DNA of 64,000 nt. Source: Naegleria gruberi (taxonomy: Eukaryota). Below, piece by piece: positions 4,511 through 58,305 of the stretch. The notes under the pieces are model-generated. The model was not told the origin of the DNA. It saw only the letters and a program-made list of their open reading frames with translations, and made no database searches. Numbering within the stretch: position 1 is the first letter of the stretch; each line of letters opens with the position of its first letter. The translations under genes were made by a program, and so were the position numbers. The DNA lies in NCBI GenBank assembly GCA_000004985.1, contig GG738866.1. One strand, given 5' to 3'.

Positions 4511-5846
4511 AGGAACATCTAAGGTAATCAATAGGGAATAATCTTAATTCCAAAATTAAATTTTACCATCATATCAAAGTCATTGAATAATGAATTAATT
4601 ATACAAGAATAATATATTCAATTGTCATATTCATGTCAGTAATCAGTGAAGGTGACACTTCTTAACCCTTAGTATACACATCTCAATATGTAGACAGTCA
4701 ATTCCACTGAAACTTGAAATATTACCTATCTAGATGATATAATAATGACTCTTCATAGTAAGATGCATGTGAAATTGAGTGTTGACCGTTTTCATCTTGT
4801 TATATTTATAGAGATGGTATCCAACAGAGTCAGTTCACAATATTAAATATTGAAACTCATTCTATAGGACAGATTTGATGTGCGGAACGGTTTTTTATTG
4901 AATGTAATCAGTTTGAAATAATCTGATGAAACTGACACTGTCTAGTCACCATTACATGACGAATAGACCAGAGTTTACATTCCCTCTCAGTCATTTCAAC
5001 GATTTATTGATTAATTCCACCACCATTATGTTTCTCGTACATTGTAGTACAGTTTATATTTCAAGAGTGATTTATGTGTAGATTTTTATAATCGTAATAC
5101 CATTCAATACCAATAAAACTAAATAGAAGAGTTAATTCTTCTCATTTTCAAATAGATTATTAAATATAGAACACATCTAGATAGTTTTTTTTCCAGATCA
5201 CAAAAGTCAAGATACTATATATGGTCTTTGATTAAATTTAAAAATAGACTGCCGTTGATTACTGGAATCTTGATTCAAAGCTTGATGATCAAGCTATTGA
5301 TTGAAATCAAACCGATTATTGAATATTGATCATTGAATTGGTGAATAATCACTTGAATCATGCTACATATTTCAGATTGCATGCAAATCAACCTGATTCA
5401 ATCTACAAAGGTTGGTACCGAAAACTACCATTCCACGATGAATCAACATTAGATTCACTTCCATTCAACTCAATTTGACCATTATAATCAATAAATCAAT
5501 GAAATGTTACTTTATTAGCAATACCTATTCAATCTAATGAGTAGATTCACGTCCCAAACATTTGACTTCTTAAAGTCGATATTTCAAAAGTTGATACTGA
5601 CCTGACCTTTAAATATCTATCAATATAAGAAATGAAACCATCAAATTTACATCATTAATAGATGATAAGAAATATAATCAATGATATAAATCTTCACTAA
5701 GTAATCTCTTAAATAACCCAAATAAATCAACTCTGAATCCACAATTACAAACTCGGAAAGAAATTCTTACAAAAAGAAATATCCTTAAACTTGATTGTAG
5801 TTATTGAACTACACTCAATTTAAATATTAACATGTTTCGCATATAA

Positions 5847-6980
5847 TTAGAAACACTTTCTGTGAACGATACCTGAGCCGGCATCTTCGTATTCCTCTTT
5901 CGTTATCCACATAGATTGAAAGGTCGAAAGTGAGGCAAAGATACTGCCTCCAATCCAGACAGAGTACTTTCTTTCTGGTGGAGCAATAACCGTAATCTTC
6001 ATTAAGGCAGGAGCCATAGCAGTCAATTCCTTGGTCATTCTTTCAGCAATACCTTCGAACATGGTTGTACCACCAGACAAGACAACGTTACCGTACAAGT
6101 CCTTTCTGATATCAATATCGCATTTACCAATTGAGTTGTAAGTAGTTTCATGAACACCAGCAGCTTCCATACCAATGAAGTTTGGTTGGAACAACACTTC
6201 TGGACATCTAAATCTTTCATTACCAACAGTAATGACATTACCATCTGGCAATTCGTATGACTTTTCAACAGATGATGATTCAGCAGCAACCTTCATTTCA
6301 GCTTCAAAGTCCAAAGCAATATAACAGAGCTTTTCCTTAATATCTCTGACAATTTCTCTTTCAGCAGTAGTATTGAATGAATAACCTCTTTCCATCAAAA
6401 TCTTCATCAAATAATCAGTCAAGTCACGACCAGCCAAATCCAATCTTAAAATAGCGTGTGGCAAAGCATAACCTTCATAAATTGGAACAGTGTGGGAAAC
6501 ACCATCACCAGAGTCCAAAACAATACCAGTAGTTCTACCAGAAGCATACAAGGACAAGACAGCTTGAATGGCAACATACATGGCTGGAACTGAGAAAGTT
6601 TCAAACATAATTTGAGTCATCTTTTCTCTATTGGCCTTTGGATTCAAAGGAGCTTCAGTCAACAAGACTGGATGTTCTTCTGGAGCAACTCTCAATTCAT
6701 TGTAGAAAGTGTGATGCCAAATCTTTTCCATATCATCCCAATTGGTAACAATACCATGTTCAATTGGATACTTCAAAGTCAAGATATCTCTCTTAGATTG
6801 AGCTTCATCACCAACATAGGCATCCTTATTACCCATACCAACCATGATTGATTTTTGCTTGGGTCTACCAATAATTGAAGGGAAGACAGCTATTGGAGCA
6901 TCATCACCAGCAAAACCAGCTTTACACATTCCAGAACCGTTGTCAACAACGAGGGCTTGAACGTCTTCACAGAAGGACAT
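5847..6980 (-). CDS. Actin (377 aa, complete, single exon); divergent at several usually invariant positions (for example [14 protein letters not shown] and [10 protein letters not shown])
   Basis: Full-length ORF with unmistakable actin sequence ([17 protein letters not shown]...[17 protein letters not shown]); stop TAA at 5847-5849. Confidence 0.95.
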
Positions 6981-50453: not shown

Positions 50454-51225
50454 TTAATTGAATGGTTGAGGTGGATAACCATAAGGATTGAATGGTTGTG
50501 GTTGCATACCGTATGGTTGAGGTGGCATACCATATGGTTGAGGAGGAGGAACTCCCATACCCATATTCATATTCATTCCCATGCCCATATTCATTCCCAT
50601 TCCCATTCCCATACCTCCAAAACGATGTCTGTAAGATGGAATTGGTTGAATGTATGAAGCACCTCCAGCCATAATGAACAAGTAAGCTGCAAATGAATTA
50701 GTCACAAATTATTGAATAATTTCAAAACATACCATTAACAAATTCATCAATGGTCATGACTCCATTACCATCACGATCCTATTTCAAATTTCTAATAAAA
50801 TTGCAAAATAAAACTAAAACTTACCATCATTCTGAAAAGGAATTTAGCTTGATGTGGAGGAATACCACTATTTTAAATCAATCATATTAATATTACTATT
50901 TAAAAAATCATTATAAAACATACAAATGAGTAGCAGCAGCAAATTTGAATTCCTTCTTTGAAAGAGTTCCACTACGATTGAGATCGTATTGCCAGAAAAT
51001 TTGTTGAGCTGCTTGCATGTAATTCATACGATTGACCATGACATGAGGAGGCTAATTAGGGAGAAATTTGGGAATTTTTCATCATTATGAGAAAAATGTA
51101 AAAAAACAACTTACAACAACGAAACCTTGTGGCAACCAAGTTGGTTGACCCATTCCTTGCCAATAAGTGGTAACAGTAGTTGTGGTAGTAGAACCTGGTT
51201 GTTGATATGATCCGTAGCCGTACAT
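50454..51225 (-). CDS. EF-hand Ca2+-binding protein (about 185 aa, 5 exons) with a G/Y-rich N-terminus and a (GM)n / PQPYG-repeat C-terminus
   Basis: Exons 51225-51115, 51051-50924, 50867-50825, 50778-50733, 50686-50454; introns of 63, 56, 46 and 46 bp, all GTAAGT or GTATGT to AG and all frame-restoring. EF loops DLNRSGTLSKKE and DRDGNGVMTIDE. Confidence 0.7.
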
Positions 51226-51656
51226 TTTTTCTATAAATTTTCATCATCACCCACCGATAAATCATTCATCATCATCATGATGAAAATATTTTCATTCGAA
51301 TAATTATTATTATGTAAATAGATATTGGATCACACAATTGTTTTTCAAGACGTGTGTATTTTGGTCAATCATTTAATAAATATATTGATCAAATAATTTG
51401 TTGAGAGTAGGAAGAGAGAAAATCAACGGTTAGTGGTAGTGTGGGAATATGACAAGATCAAAAATTTATCCGAACATTAGAATTGTTACATACAGTTGTT
51501 GTGAATTTTTTTGCTTGTTTTGGGGCGATTTCCAGGTCATGATTTATTATTAGAGTGCCAAATTAGAATCACCCTGTAACAAGTTAATTTGGAACAAACT
51601 TTACAATACAAGTACATGTAAATTTCGACTGTTTTTATCAATTAAAGATACATTTA

Positions 51657-54600
51657 TTAAGGATGAAGAGTATTGTCAATTGAAGTCAGTGTATACTCAC
51701 AAACATCTTCTTGGCCTGTTTTTGATCTGTCCTGTTTTGGGGTTTGATTTTGGAATTGATATAAATTTTGTTGTGATCCATTGTTGGAACCACCATACAT
51801 GGAATTAGATCTGGAGCGAGCTCTTTCAACTTCACCCAAATCAACTCTGAGTGGTGGATATTCTCTCTGTTGAATTTCTGGACATTTCACTTCAAATATT
51901 CTTGTTGATTCAGAAAGCCCTTTTAGTGGATAAACTCCCAAATCTCTAGCAGAGAACACTCTCTCAGCTTGAATTCTCTGTCTTTTCTTGGAGAAACTTG
52001 AACTGGACGAGAAGCTGGCACTATTGGTTTCATCAACATTTAAAAAGTTACTATAACCTGCTTCAACATTTGCTTCATCCAAGTATTGGACATCCTTATA
52101 AAGAGATCTGGTCTTGTAGAATAAATCCTCGCTCACACATACTTGACCACCATGGGCCAAGGCTTCAATACGGGCAGACTTGTTTACAACAGTACCAAAA
52201 TAATCATATCTCTTCATTGTCTTGTCAAAAACACAGTCACCCTTACCATAATGCAAACCAATTCTCACTCTCAAACCACTCCAATAGGCTTTTCTTGTCT
52301 TAGAGTCCCACTCTTGTCTACAATCCCATTCATGATATAGATCACTAGGCCATTTAGCTGAAAGCAATTCTAATTGAACAGCCATAGCCCACAACATGGC
52401 ATCATATGGATCTCTGAAAGCAACATAAAAACTGTCACCGTTCGTCTTTACTTCATACCCTCTATAGAGTTGGAGATTTCTTCTCATTATTTGATTGTGA
52501 ATTTCCAAAGATTCCCTCATAGCCTTCTCATTACCTTGCCACAACTTGGTACTATTCTGAACATCAGTGAATGCACAAGTGATAAAACCTGATTTAGGTG
52601 CATACTTTTCGCTTGAATCCTTTCTAAAACAGCATAAAAGCAGTGTCATTATAGAACATGCACAAATAATGCAAACGGCAGAACCAATAGAAATACCAAC
52701 AATTGCACCAGTTGAAAGTGTTCTTACTATTGGTTTCAATCCACATGTGTCTAGATCTAATTTATAGGTGGTATTCAAATTTGAAGAAGCATATTGCAAG
52801 TACAACATTTTAGAACCTTGATTACATCCACAAGTAGTCATATCCAAATCACAATTAGATGAGGAAATAGATCTTGCACTAATTGTTGTTGAAGAAGTGG
52901 TAGGACAGGTGTCCCCATAAGGTCCAAAATAATCTTCACCTAACTCAAAAACTGATCTCAAAAATAACGAAGAAGTAAATGTTGATCTAGTCATTTCAAT
53001 ATTTGCTTGTTGCATATAGCTTAAAATGTTCGATACCATTGTTGCAAGGGCATAGCCTTCATAGGCTTCCATAGTCTTATTCAAATTAGGGAAATATGCT
53101 GGATAATCAATCAGAAATTCTCTGGCCATTATATTTGTTGAGCCCGCTTTAGCAAATGAAATAAGGAAAGAAGTGGAAATAATATTGGAAGGGAATGTGA
53201 ATCCTTTGAATTCCACATCTGACATGACCTCAGATGGAATGAGAATAAGTGAAGATGATCCTGTATATCTGTTCAAAAAGTCCTTCACATCCACAGCACT
53301 GGCCATCACAATAACAACATCTCCCAAACTTTGTGTCCAATCAACAACACTTCTGGATCTAGAAAATTGCTTGTATGAAGGAGTTATATCTTCATTACTT
53401 GTCTTGAAGAAGTAAGTTACGTTAGCCACGGCTGATTTCCAATACTGATCAGTACTGTGAATGATTGTAACATCTGGTTCCGTAATGATGCTACTCGCAT
53501 ATCTTGTTGCTGAAACTACTTCTTCAACAATACTTGGTCTCAAATTCACTACATATCTTGAGTATGGATATCTCAACTCTGGATGTCCTGAAACAGATCC
53601 TATCATTGCTACTTGGTATGAGTTCAACACATCTCTAATAGCAGATACATTACCAGTAATTACAGAGCCCAAAATACCAAATACCTTATTCTTTTCAATA
53701 AGGGTTTTAGCCTTTGAAATAATATCTGTCTCATCAGTATAATACTCTGAATAAATGTGTACTTGTGTATCGATAGTACCTTTCTCATTCATTTTGGAGA
53801 AGAGTGATTGAATACCAGTTACCAGATCATTGTTGACATTCTTATATGAAGAGGGATAAAGTCCTCCAAATATGATTGGACTCTTGATACCAGTAGAAGC
53901 TATAATGCTGTCCTTCTGAGCTCCACATTTTTCCTTGTTGTACACAAAATTATCAACCAACTCAAAGGATGTGCCAGTGTATTGGTAAATAAAATGAGAT
54001 CTCATGCCTTGATTACAGGAACCAGACATAAATTTACCAAATGGAATTTGGTATTTCAAAAATTCCTTACTGGAATATAATGTTTCATAGATGGATTTAC
54101 CATTGATAGTTGAAGTAAGAGGAATATTATCTAACACTTCAATAATAAAACTTCCAACAAGGAAACCTTCGACTGCTCCCAAAGTGGTTGGATTTGTTTC
54201 ATAGTATTTAGCCATTATTGAAGAATAAGAATCTATGAGAGTATGTTTCACGCTGAGATAAGGGAATGATTGTGAAATGTAGAATTTAACACTAGACATA
54301 GAAGGATTAGAAAGAAGATTGGATAGTTCTGCCTCCCATGAAATCTGCCTAAAGAAGAGACAAAAGACATGAATCTCATTTCTCAGACCAACAGATTTGA
54401 TACCTTCCAATACTGATTGTAAATATTTGAAACTAGTAACATCTTCAGGAATGGAAATGATAACTACTTGAGGATTTGCATCTTGGGAAAGTGAGTTGGT
54501 AATCAAAGATGAATTAACAGTTTGATCCATAGAAAATAGATAGCTACTGTCAATAGCTAGTCCATATGCTGAAATGATGGAAGAGAATTCTGAAAAGATG

Positions 54601-56647
54601 TTCTGACCATCCTTGCAGTTAGATCCCACAAACGAAAATCTGGACAATCCCAAAGTATTCATTCCAAAACTCATAATTGCTAGTATTCTTTCTCTAACAG
54701 TTAGTGTAACGAGAGCAACATTATTATAGAAGGTTGATCTCAATGCTGGTGAATCGTAGCCAGTTAGAGGTGAAATCATGACAATACTAGGGAAATTCGA
54801 GGAAAATTCCCCAATAAAATCCTTCATTACAGACTCGGCAGCTTTGCTTCCTACTAAGCCGACAATATCATGATCTACCACAAAGTTCCTTGTTGCTGAA
54901 ATCAAAGTTGAGGAGTTGTAGCTTTCCGAGACTGACAATACTTCAATTCTTCTTCCTCTGACTCCTTTCTGTAAATCATTTCTGTCATTAAAAGCAGCCA
55001 ACAATCCCATTAAAAAGTCATTGTCGTAAACACTTCCATCAGATGTATGCCCAAAAATGATTGGAAGCGAAATCTTTGTTGGATCAAAAAAGCAAGTAAA
55101 AGTGGAGGATCCAGGTAAATCCCAAGTCATTGGCTCACCAATTTCCGAGAATGAATTGTCTGTGTTTTGAATGGTTTTCCACACAGCCCTCATACCTTGG
55201 TTACATGAGCAAGAGGACATGTATGCATCATCTAATGTTATTAGACTTCTCTTATTGAGCTTGATACTTGGTGCAAGAGAAGCTGTCAAACTGTGTAGCA
55301 CAAGAGGATTAGAAATTTGCTCCTCGAAAAAGAAATATCGTCTTCTGCTCTGAACAGTTGTGCATTTAGTATAAGGACCTACTACTTGATTGTCCATAAT
55401 GTAGGTAGAGGATGAATAAATTAAGTTGATAAAATTGTCTCTGGTCAAGTCGCCTGAAACTCTCTGGGTGAGTACACTGATTGCAAGTTTACCAGCCATG
55501 TATCCTTCCAATTCTACAATGGATGGTACGTAGGATGGATTCAGAGCTTTCATGGCTCTTTGATAAGACAACACAATTGGATATTTGGTATTTGTTGGAG
55601 CTGGATATACTTGGGTAATTACAATGCTTGATCGATAGGGTAATGGATTTGATCCAATGAATGATCCTGTCATGAAAATGATATTCGAATCAAAGTCAGT
55701 CCTATTCTTTACAGCCTCAATAAAAGCAACTGTTGGCTTGTAGGTTGACATGCAAATGATTGCTTGTGGTTTTCCCTTGACAATATCCTCTACTGCCTGG
55801 GCAACATTAATGGTATTTCTCTCGTATTTACCCTATTAAGGTGAGATAGTAGCAACATTACTCAGTTGTGTTGTAATTTTGAGAATTATAATAATAACAT
55901 ACCATTGAGGTCAAATTCATTCCCAGTGGTTTAAGCGCAAGGGTTGATCCATCCACTCCTGACAGACCAAATGCATCGTTTTGATAAAAGATGGAGATTC
56001 TTCTCACCATTTTGACATTTACCAAATACTCAACCATTGCGGCGCACTCGTCCTGATAACTGGCTCTCACATTAATAATATTTGGTACGAAAGGATGTCT
56101 CATAAAAAGACCACCTGTTAAGGCTCCAACAAATGGCATTTTAGATGCAGTAATAAGGTCAAGAATTGCCTGACTGGTACCAGTTCCCATAAACCCAATA
56201 AATCCAAATATTGTATGGTTGCTAAGAAGAGTGAGTGTATTGTTGACACATCGAGCTGGCTCATAGCCATCATCAACAGAGTACAGGCGAAGTTTCTTAC
56301 CTCCCCACACACCTCCTAATTCGTTGATTTCCTTAAATGCAGCTTGAATGCCAACCATGAGCGGATAGCCCAGTCTGTTTTTCAACAGTGATGAATCATA
56401 CATAATGTTAAATTCATTGCAAATAACAAAAATACAGTATTATTCACACCTCATCTTTAACATTTAAAACTTACTCTCTGGTCTGTCCAGTAAGGGCAGT
56501 TGATTGCCCGAACCAAATATCGGTCTCATCATTCCATTTTTTGTCGTACTCTGTCTGGTCAAAGGTAAAAGATGTGTTAACAGTATTTCTATTCATCAAT
56601 ACAATAAGCAGCACGATTAATATTAATATTTTCAAAATATTCTTCAT
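51657..56647 (-). CDS. Receptor-type class III adenylate/guanylate cyclase (about 1600 aa): signal peptide, tandem periplasmic-binding-protein (ANF-receptor-like) ligand-binding modules, TM, cyclase homology domain
   Basis: Three exons: 56647-56475 (signal peptide MKNILKILILIVLLIVLM), 56374-55903, 55832-51657. Introns 56474-56375 (GTAAGT..ACAG) and 55902-55833 (GTATGT..ATAG) are in phase. PBP-like motifs (LMVGIQAAFKEINELGG, IVGLVGS…). CNQG motif recurs three times (SCNQGMRAVW, SCNQGMRSHF, CGCNQGSKML). TM AIVGISIGSAVCIICACSIMTLLLCCF; CHD FTDVQNSTKLW…VKTNGDSFYVAF…. Confidence 0.85.
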
Positions 56648-57012
56648 TTTAGTTGTACTGCTCTTACTATATATCGGCGTAAGGTGCCCTATATTACTAG
56701 AACTACTATTATATTTACAATTTGATGAATTCATCCTAGAGTTTTTAAATTTCCTCCTTAATGCAATTTGTTATTAAAGTTTCTTAGTAGAGCAAGAACC
56801 AAACGCTCCACAATTTTTCGGTATTGCTGTTGTTTTTTTCGCTTGTTCAAAGTTGCTTCTTCTTTGAGACCAGCCTTTCCCTCGATTGAACTACGCGCTT
56901 GTGGGGGCTGTAATTTGAGGCGTTTGTTACGTTGTTTTTTGTACGTTCCTTAATAGCGGCAAGTATTTTTGTCTTTGGTTAAATTATCACTGTTTTAGAA
57001 AGAAAGAATCTC

Positions 57013-57507: not shown

Positions 57508-58305
57508 ATGTCAAATTCTTCATCCAATGAAATCCAACCACACGTTCAAGCCATTTCCAATCTTTCCGATAGAATCGCATCCACAATAACACCTCTTGAG
57601 AATCATGTAAATGATCATCTCTCCAAGGAACAATTAATTTCCATATTTTTCCATGATGAATCCGAGTATCAGTCCTCAACTTTGCAATATACGGCTCCTT
57701 TCAAGGCTACAATTAGAATTTGTACACCTCCGAACGATCAAGAATCTTGTATTATTAATTCATCGGAAGAGTTTCATCTCTATGTGATGAGTGAGCACTT
57801 GTTATTGTTTAATATGGTACATGCTTACAAGATTCACTTTTCTGATATTCTAATGCATGGTGTTCAGAAACAACCACAAATTTGTATGTATTGTCAATTG
57901 GCTTGTGATAGTGGAGTTGCCAAAGATGAAAAGGATGAATCACAAATGGATGAAGATGATGATGAAGGATTTGAAAGTGTTTGTGAAATGATTATTCAAT
58001 TGCAAGTTCAATCATCAGCTTTGGAACAAATTTATAATCAAATGTATCAGGCCTTTTCGAGAGCTGCTGAAAATGTACCTCTCTCTGATATGCAAGATGA
58101 TGATGAAAGTAATTCCATTAAATTTGATCCAAAATCATTGGATGATAAATTGAGCATTAGCACTGATGGATGGATTTATAATGTTGAGGAAATGAGAAGG
58201 GGTGTTCTTATTAGAGATCGTACTGAAAGAGAGGAAGATGATGACGAAGATGGATGGGAGGATGTGGATGAAGAGGATGAAAAGAATAAGAAATTGAAAA
58301 TGTAA
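57508..58305 (+). CDS. Acidic protein, possibly pICln (methylosome subunit)-like
   Basis: 265-aa ORF with AAAAAAAATG start; HLYVMSEH…, central and C-terminal acidic tracts (MDEDDDEGFE; EREEDDDEDGWEDVDEEDE) loosely resemble pICln organisation. Confidence 0.3.
   Translation: MSNSSSNEIQPHVQAISNLSDRIASTITPLENHVNDHLSKEQLISIFFHDESEYQSSTLQYTAPFKATIRICTPPNDQESCIINSSEEFHLYVMSEHLLLFNMVHAYKIHFSDILMHGVQKQPQICMYCQLACDSGVAKDEKDESQMDEDDDEGFESVCEMIIQLQVQSSALEQIYNQMYQAFSRAAENVPLSDMQDDDESNSIKFDPKSLDDKLSISTDGWIYNVEEMRRGVLIRDRTEREEDDDEDGWEDVDEEDEKNKKLKM

Follow-up and report, generated by a model that had tools for sequence, protein, structure and literature searches.

Does a receptor that stacks three binding modules on one enzyme read three signals? 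The question is raised by a gene on the minus strand of Naegleria contig GG738866.1 (assembly GCA_000004985.1), at positions 51,657 to 56,647 of the 64,000-nucleotide stretch analyzed here (the window). A first-pass annotation described the product as a receptor-type nucleotidyl cyclase with three periplasmic-binding-protein (PBP) regions, and suggested that it integrates several small-molecule ligands into cAMP/cGMP output. The reading that we favor, with moderate confidence, is a receptor adenylate cyclase in which module 1, the outermost, is the sensor, modules 2 and 3 are divergent relays, and cAMP is synthesized by a homodimer.

The predicted product is a type I membrane protein with a signal peptide, three PBP modules, one transmembrane (TM) helix and a cytosolic class III cyclase domain (Table 1). 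This is the layout proposed in the first-pass annotation, and both hydropathy and Pfam agree with it. A hydropathy scan yields two hydrophobic segments only, at residues 1-20 and 1253-1285. Three successive blocks of ~390-420 residues each exceed the gathering score of 31.7 bits for family Peripla_BP_6 (127.8 bits in module 1, 36.8 in module 2 and 35.2 in module 3), while Guanylate_cyc matches C-terminal of the TM helix with 85.1 bits against a cut-off of 21.9. The linker from the TM helix to the catalytic domain is only ~10-15 residues long. Between the helix and the cyclase no kinase-homology, HAMP or coiled-coil element was found, and Pfam gave no Pkinase match.

Homology extends through all three modules. 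A profile made from 48 bacterial binding proteins recovers three full-length domains (profile positions ~52-355) with 351, 42 and 52 bits for modules 1, 2 and 3, respectively. The N. gruberi ortholog likewise yields three full-length domains. The Logan protein P0002 is partial: its module 1 is matched only in part, and its module 3 as two partial pieces. Module 1 matches Peripla_BP_6 with E = 1e-36 and the bacterial PBP 4kv7 with 1.9e-43. Identity between modules is low (19% for module 1 versus module 2, 20% for module 1 versus module 3), and no significant similarity between modules 2 and 3 is detected by BLAST. The relation missed by BLAST was resolved through profile-profile comparison: profiles of each module built from orthologs only pair along their whole length, and hhalign gives these pairs probabilities of 98.4, 98.8 and 97.3%. 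The alignment of the three modules that had been proposed as a check is thus obtained with probabilities of 97-99%. On this basis, the modules are old internal duplicates of one another.

The fold is also predicted to be retained. AlphaFold models of module 2 (predicted local distance difference test, pLDDT, 90.3; predicted TM-score, pTM, 0.90) and module 3 (pLDDT 82.4, pTM 0.85), whose input alignments included bacterial PBPs, are bilobed alpha/beta structures with TM-scores of 0.7-0.8 against type-I PBPs. The Foldseek matches are 4m88 and 4kv7 for module 2 (TM-scores 0.72-0.78), with the NPR-C complex 1jdp among the fold matches, and 4kv7 and 3lop for module 3. For module 1, a bilobed PBP fold is expected from its sequence identity to the solved 4kv7. 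The first-pass annotation had named a lack of PBP-fold hits for modules 2 and 3 as an outcome that would refute it; such hits are provided by Pfam, by the bacterial profile and by AlphaFold/Foldseek alike. Assignment of a ligand class is not feasible, since the NCBIfam matches are limited to weak LivJ/UrtA-type hits far under their cut-offs. The trypanosome-ectodomain Pfam models (PF25493, PF25495) also remain below their threshold of 27.2 bits, with scores of 23.8, 17.8 and 15.5 bits; the best of these is given by PF25493 on the membrane-proximal module 3. Relatives from Acrasis, Euglena and Rhabdomonas pass this cut-off.

The modules differ from one another in conservation. Identity of module 1 to bacterial binding proteins is 40-45%. 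Against the N. gruberi ortholog, module 1 reaches 67% and the cyclase domain 68%, compared with 39% for module 2 and 38% for module 3. Over the whole protein, identity is 50% to N. gruberi and 47% to N. lovaniensis. As signature columns we took the 73 alignment columns with conservation of 85% or more among the bacterial proteins. Module 1 keeps 57 of these, module 2 keeps 21 and module 3 keeps 23. The motifs DDGYEP, GTPT (GTxT), RASY..E, Q.D..G, RN and SF.G are all intact in module 1; in modules 2 and 3 essentially all signature motifs are gone in every ortholog, and the substituted residues vary among orthologs. The pattern is repeated in the orthologs that were compared (all three modules of N. 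gruberi, and modules 2 and 3 of the relative on Logan contig L001). Between the window protein and N. gruberi, 88% of signature columns are invariant in module 1 and 44% in each of modules 2 and 3. The non-signature columns of modules 2 and 3 show ~30% invariance, and their former signature columns therefore lie just slightly above background. In LIVBP-type proteins, the signature loops line the cleft between the two lobes. Since module 1 evolves slowly and bears the signature, while modules 2 and 3 evolve fast without it, one sensor at the distal end, followed by two divergent relay modules, is more likely than a triple sensor. The proposal that three modules integrate several ligands thus finds no support in the pattern of conservation.

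The genomic setting of bacterial relatives fits a sensory role for module 1. We examined six bacterial loci that encode such relatives, a small sample. Despite labels such as 'branched-chain amino acid ABC transporter', none of the six has ABC permease or ATPase genes beside it. At 4/6 loci, the gene lies directly upstream of one for a protein of ~735-830 residues that combines HAMP with HisKA/HATPase or with MCPsignal, and at three of these four it overlaps the downstream HAMP gene by 4 nucleotides. The four HAMP-linked loci usually sit amid genes for RsbU-type phosphatases, STAS proteins and anti-sigma kinases; the other two are orphans. This arrangement suggests that binding proteins of this subtype serve bacteria as dedicated sensor partners. 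The HAMP-linked loci are on bacterial metagenome contigs (L002, L003, L006, L008), where the gene occupies ~5001-6200 and its product is 35-41% identical to module 1. An ammonium transporter is found nearby in two of them. P0006, the top 'bacterial' match, is actually part of a eukaryotic gene encoding two PBP modules and a seven-transmembrane (7TM) domain.

The cyclase domain carries the residues expected of an active adenylate cyclase. Its best solved relatives are T. brucei GRESAG4.3 and GRESAG4.1 (1e-26), with which it aligns at all six canonical class III positions, and it shares the motifs FTD, KTxGD and YDYxGxxxNxxAR with the experimentally characterized T. brucei GRESAG4 cyclases. All six residues are present on one chain: the metal ligands D1305 and D1348, the transition-state residues N1432 and R1436, and the pair K1344 (VKTNGD) and D1425 (YDYFG), which specifies ATP, in place of the Glu/Cys pair. 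This assignment follows the scheme of Rv1625c and mammalian C2. Given the Lys/Asp pair and the full catalytic set, we infer a homodimer-type adenylate cyclase whose expected product is cAMP, not cGMP; of the output foreseen by the first-pass annotation, which had asked for these residues to be inspected, the cAMP half is upheld and the cGMP half is dropped. Two insertions interrupt the domain. One occurs at the site of the trypanosome delta-subdomain (residues ~1373-1400) and is ~16 residues shorter than in trypanosomes. The other is a low-complexity insert at residues ~1470-1505, after which the last strands (LGVYPLKG...IFEV) are conserved in L001.

The three-exon, single-gene model of the first-pass annotation is correct to the base. 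Its frame is open, a stop codon is met on read-through of either intron, and homology supports both splice junctions: 4kv7 aligns gap-free over the exon 1/2 junction and also spans the one between exons 2 and 3, and at intron 2 the N. gruberi ortholog is collinear and of the same length. Exon 1 is matched in L001 with 58% identity and the same ...QTRE end. The L001 gene is a syntenic ortholog, as neighboring genes on both sides are common to L001 and the window; there, additional introns interrupt both module 1 and the cyclase domain. The L001 methionine aligns with the ATG at 56647. The ATG farther upstream, at 56734, was rejected as the start, given this match and the classical signal peptide that results from a start at 56647. 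A search within the window found no paralog of the cyclase gene, in tandem or elsewhere. By these alignments, the locus is one real, intact spliced gene.

The expectation that automated callers would truncate or fragment this gene is borne out in relatives. The N. gruberi RefSeq model (P0001) starts within module 1 (MTGVQAAF...) and lacks a signal peptide, the N. lovaniensis model (P0126) has 976 residues and starts within module 2, and on L001 prokaryote-style calls leave it in four or more pieces. Cyclase censuses for Naegleria that use such N-terminally truncated public models would misclassify receptor forms as soluble or incomplete.

The recurring CNQG motif, to which the first-pass annotation drew attention, is real. 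Its three copies are spaced by 396 and 397 residues, compared with an expected count of 0.0033 per protein (Poisson P(>=3) = 6e-9). Its interpretation as special punctuation between modules does not hold. The NQG of all three modules aligns to a single bacterial column set, [HN][QV][GA]S..V.LT, and the closest stand-alone bacterial binding proteins carry NQGMDKVFLT at this position. Three copies of CNQG thus reflect three copies of the module, and the idea of a novel boundary or cleavage motif was rejected once the bacterial column had been aligned. According to these alignments, and to secondary structure assigned by DSSP on the AlphaFold models of modules 2 and 3, CNQG is an inherited family signature that opens the last beta-hairpin of each module; within the motif, the cysteine alone is a eukaryotic addition. 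A second cysteine follows 27-37 residues later and ends each module (C425/C462, C821/C851, C1218/C1245), a pattern that is conserved in orthologs. The two cysteines probably form a disulfide that closes the hairpin. Three features are eukaryotic additions: the cysteine before NQG, the module-closing cysteine, and, in modules 1 and 3, variable loops rich in Cys or Ser/Thr that precede the motif. In module 1 this loop is an insertion of ~50 residues (372-422), and in module 3 it is rich in both Ser/Thr and Cys. The module-end pattern GPY...C...C.QG...C also occurs in unrelated eukaryotic PBP-PBP-7TM receptors (P0003, P0004, L004).

The window gene is not isolated. An exhaustive HMMER search of 1.84 billion representatives, with modules 2-3 and the cyclase as query, gave 14,745 matches, mostly to cyclase domains. 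Among the best 150, 38 contain PBP modules, and 36 of those 38 combine PBP modules with a cyclase. The number of modules varies: one in Willaertia magna (P0150); two in Euglena (P0205, P0220) and a metagenomic protein (P0147); three in an N. gruberi paralog (P0133) and in Acrasis kona (P0142, P0161); and four in Rhabdomonas costata (P0152), where Pfam finds four Peripla_BP_6 stretches. P0206, P0248 and P0273 also belong to the four-module type but are incomplete. The Rhabdomonas alignment is collinear from module 2 through the cyclase, and at least the proximal tandem therefore seems to predate the split of Heterolobosea and Euglenozoa. Two or three modules of the euglenid four-module proteins retain much of the bacterial signature, compared with the distal module only in the Naegleria type. 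The euglenid-type proteins P0152, P0206, P0248 and P0273, from Rhabdomonas costata and metagenomes, are more plausible as true multi-ligand receptors than the window gene is. Judged by sequence, the window gene is a three-module member, with syntenic orthologs, of a Discoba-wide family of receptor cyclases with one to four modules.

The first-pass annotation had cited kinetoplastid receptor cyclases as having a single PBP domain. This needs correction: most trypanosome isoforms are described with two Venus-flytrap domains (PMC6027212), and relatives in Discoba have one to four. As a result, the triple form is a variant in a series that already exists, rather than a jump from one module to three. 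The trypanosome enzymes require dimerization of their catalytic domains, are activated in vitro by acid, hypotonic and proteolytic stress, have no known ligand, and play roles in host immune evasion and social motility (PMC6027212). Our literature searches on PBP-type receptor cyclases of Naegleria or Euglena gave nothing specific. The Naegleria and Acrasis genome papers count many membrane cyclases, and in those that are searchable this architecture is not described.

On the favored reading, activity would require a head-to-tail homodimer, whose two symmetric active sites make cAMP. The membrane-distal module 1 would bind a small molecule, and its ligand-driven closure would alter the packing of the two ectodomains. 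Modules 2 and 3 would most likely form a stalk, provide dimerization surfaces or relay movement mechanically from module 1 to the membrane. The change in packing would shift the juxtaposition of the two TM helices, and the short juxtamembrane linker would pass this change directly to the catalytic dimer.

Several considerations weigh against this scheme. Ligand gating is unproven across the family, and the trypanosome relatives, stress-activated in vitro, offer no ligand as precedent (PMC6027212). The loss of signature in modules 2 and 3 would mean that the ancestral ligand is no longer bound in the ancestral mode, which is not proof that nothing is bound. Both modules keep a confidently predicted bilobed fold that is retained in four orthologs, although the fold result is not independent of homology given the alignments supplied to AlphaFold2. 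Module 3 retains RPSI..E, common to the membrane-proximal modules of other family members, and its conservation points to some conserved function. The signature columns of module 1 probably line the cleft, as they do in LIVBP-type proteins generally, and the hairpin disulfide is a proposal from sequence. Gene structure and activity are likewise predicted from sequence.

How far do the alternatives account for the same evidence? If each PBP module bound its own small ligand and the cyclase integrated the three occupancies into one cAMP output, it would be understandable that all three are complete bilobed PBP folds kept in four orthologs, and the euglenid four-module relatives with two or three signature-bearing modules indicate that multi-site sensing may exist in the family. 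We nevertheless regard this as unlikely for the window gene, where modules 2 and 3, as in the compared orthologs, have lost essentially all signature motifs to varying replacements, evolve much faster than module 1 and conserve their former signature columns barely above background. Slightly less likely still is a stress-gated or constitutive cyclase, whose ectodomain would have no diffusible ligand and would set the balance of monomer and dimer, with membrane stress, pH, osmolarity or proteolysis as the trigger. The very short linker, lacking a HAMP or coiled-coil transducer, suits such a mechanism, as does the activation of the trypanosome relatives by acid, hypotonic and proteolytic stress with no ligand found (PMC6027212). 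In module 1, strong constraint falls on precisely those residues that bacterial binding proteins conserve, which is hard to reconcile with an ectodomain that binds nothing, and the bacterial relatives of this module are wired to sensory transducers.

The two remaining alternatives are highly improbable. A guanylate cyclase or dual-specificity enzyme might be considered because the Pfam family spans both activities and one weak PDB match is to a soluble guanylyl cyclase beta chain; against it, Lys1344/Asp1425 is the ATP pair, just as in the T. brucei adenylate cyclases, and these outscore every other PDB match by a wide margin. We give equally little credence to an annotation artefact, in which separate genes or a decaying pseudogene are mistaken for one protein of 1606 residues. 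The fragmented or N-terminally short public models of relatives, and a gene model read from the DNA itself, would allow for it. However, the spliced frame is open for 4821 nucleotides, homology to single-chain PBPs crosses both junctions, exon 1 and both flanking genes are conserved in the syntenic L001, and all catalytic residues are intact.

A bolder proposal, which we hold to be rather doubtful, is that Discoba possess an old series of receptors with one to four flytraps, of which trypanosomatid receptor cyclases, long regarded as a hallmark of that group, are the reduced end, and that module 1 retains a near-bacterial sensory pocket of the kind paired in bacteria with HAMP kinases and chemoreceptors; in its stronger version, modules 2 and 3 would have acquired new ligands and the protein would receive three inputs. 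If true, the ligand of the whole family could be found by de-orphanizing module 1 or its bacterial cousins. Free-living relatives carry the trypanosome-type receptor with an outermost module much less diverged from bacterial binding proteins. Module 1, being soluble, conserved and 40-45% bacterial-like, would be a tractable start for ligand discovery. In addition, the series of one to four modules provides a natural set for studying how stacked flytraps signal across a membrane.

Table 1. Coordinates of the receptor cyclase gene and its encoded features in the window (all on the minus strand).
Feature	Position	Length	Residues	Remarks
Whole gene	51657-56647	spliced coding sequence 4821 nt	1606 in total	three exons, in frame
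Exon 1	56475..56647	173 nt	1-58	start ATG 56647; signal peptide, first beta-strand of module 1
Intron 1	56375..56474	100 nt		GTAAGT...AG; false ATG 56403 inside
Exon 2	55903..56374	472 nt	58-215	N-terminal lobe of module 1
Intron 2	55833..55902	70 nt		GTATGT...AG
Exon 3	51657..55832	4176 nt	216-1606	includes TAA stop
Signal peptide	56576-56647		~1-24	
Module 1	55092..56527, introns included		41-462	membrane-distal type-I PBP; probable ligand sensor
CNQG 1	55194..55205		425-428	
Module 2	53922..55091		463-852	divergent type-I PBP
CNQG 2	54006..54017		821-824	directly before C-terminal beta-hairpin of module 2
Module 3	52731..53921		853-1249	membrane-proximal divergent type-I PBP
CNQG 3	52815..52826		1218-1221	directly before C-terminal beta-hairpin of module 3
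TM helix	52623..52721		~1253-1285	single; hydropathy scan
Class III cyclase homology domain	51858..52595		1295-1540	Guanylate_cyc 5.8e-24
C-terminal tail	51660..51857		1541-1606	Ser/Asn/Gln-rich; no domain match

The surroundings of the gene were also inspected. The upstream neighbor (57508-58305, plus strand) encodes an acidic protein of 265 residues that matches an L001 gene with the Pfam family Voldacs (ICln-like volume regulator), which confirms microsynteny on this side. The downstream neighbor (50454-51265, minus strand) encodes GMGMNMGM and PPQPYG repeats, with tandem repeats at 50492-50613, and after these a segment similar to an EF hand. It resembles a penta-EF-hand protein of the ALG-2 type; its EF-hand exon is conserved in L001 (13430-13560). 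The window begins with ~61 copies of AACCCA (1-366), followed by 590 bp of unique sequence, an N gap (956-1005) and a second array of ~64 copies of AAACCC (1006-1388). These arrays are a telomere repeat of the TTTGGG type that marks the end of a chromosome or scaffold, and its duplication across the gap looks like an assembly join. From this end to the cyclase gene is ~50 kb.

Among known systems, the trypanosomatid ESAG4/GRESAG4 cyclases are alike in their type I topology, PBP/Venus-flytrap ectodomain, single TM helix and nearly direct connection to the catalytic domain, as well as in a homodimer-type class III domain with Lys/Asp; the insertion at the delta-subdomain site probably corresponds to part of theirs. 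The window protein differs in having three PBP modules compared with the two described in trypanosomes (PMC6027212), a shorter insertion at the delta-subdomain site together with the extra low-complexity catalytic insert, a host from a free-living amoeboflagellate lineage, and a distal module far nearer to bacterial binding proteins. The bacterial LIVBP-type proteins themselves (Peripla_BP_6; 4kv7, 3lop and the metagenomic P0007-P0125) resemble module 1 over the whole fold and share its signature motifs, including NQG(M/S)..V. Unlike module 1, they are soluble or lipid-anchored single modules that lack the cysteines and the inserted loop, and they are encoded separately, beside a HAMP kinase or chemoreceptor gene at the four linked loci; in the window, the module is triplicated and fused to its effector.

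Three other receptor types share parts of this design. Animal natriuretic-peptide receptor guanylate cyclases are alike in their type-I PBP fold (ANF_receptor), single TM helix and dimeric class III cyclase, but they have one PBP module, a kinase-homology domain with a coiled-coil transducer, a Glu/Cys pair for GTP, and a peptide bound at the dimer interface; the kinase-homology domain, the coiled coil and the Glu/Cys pair are all missing from the window protein. The tandem-PBP receptors similar to class C 7TM receptors (P0003, P0004, L004) have the same PBP_6 subtype and module-end cysteine pattern. In contrast, they carry two modules, both of which retain most of the signature, and their output domain is 7tm_3. 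Two tandem PBP_6 modules with a class C 7tm_3 domain are found in L004 and L005 (5001-9717; eukaryotic metagenome) as well as in P0003, P0004 and P0006, and the L004/L005 receptor genes are split into pieces by a prokaryote-style caller. A parallel for non-equivalent stacked modules that act as a mechanical relay is the Bordetella sensor kinase BvgS, with its tandem Venus-flytrap domains. BvgS differs in that it is bacterial, has two modules of type II PBP fold and ends in a histidine kinase.

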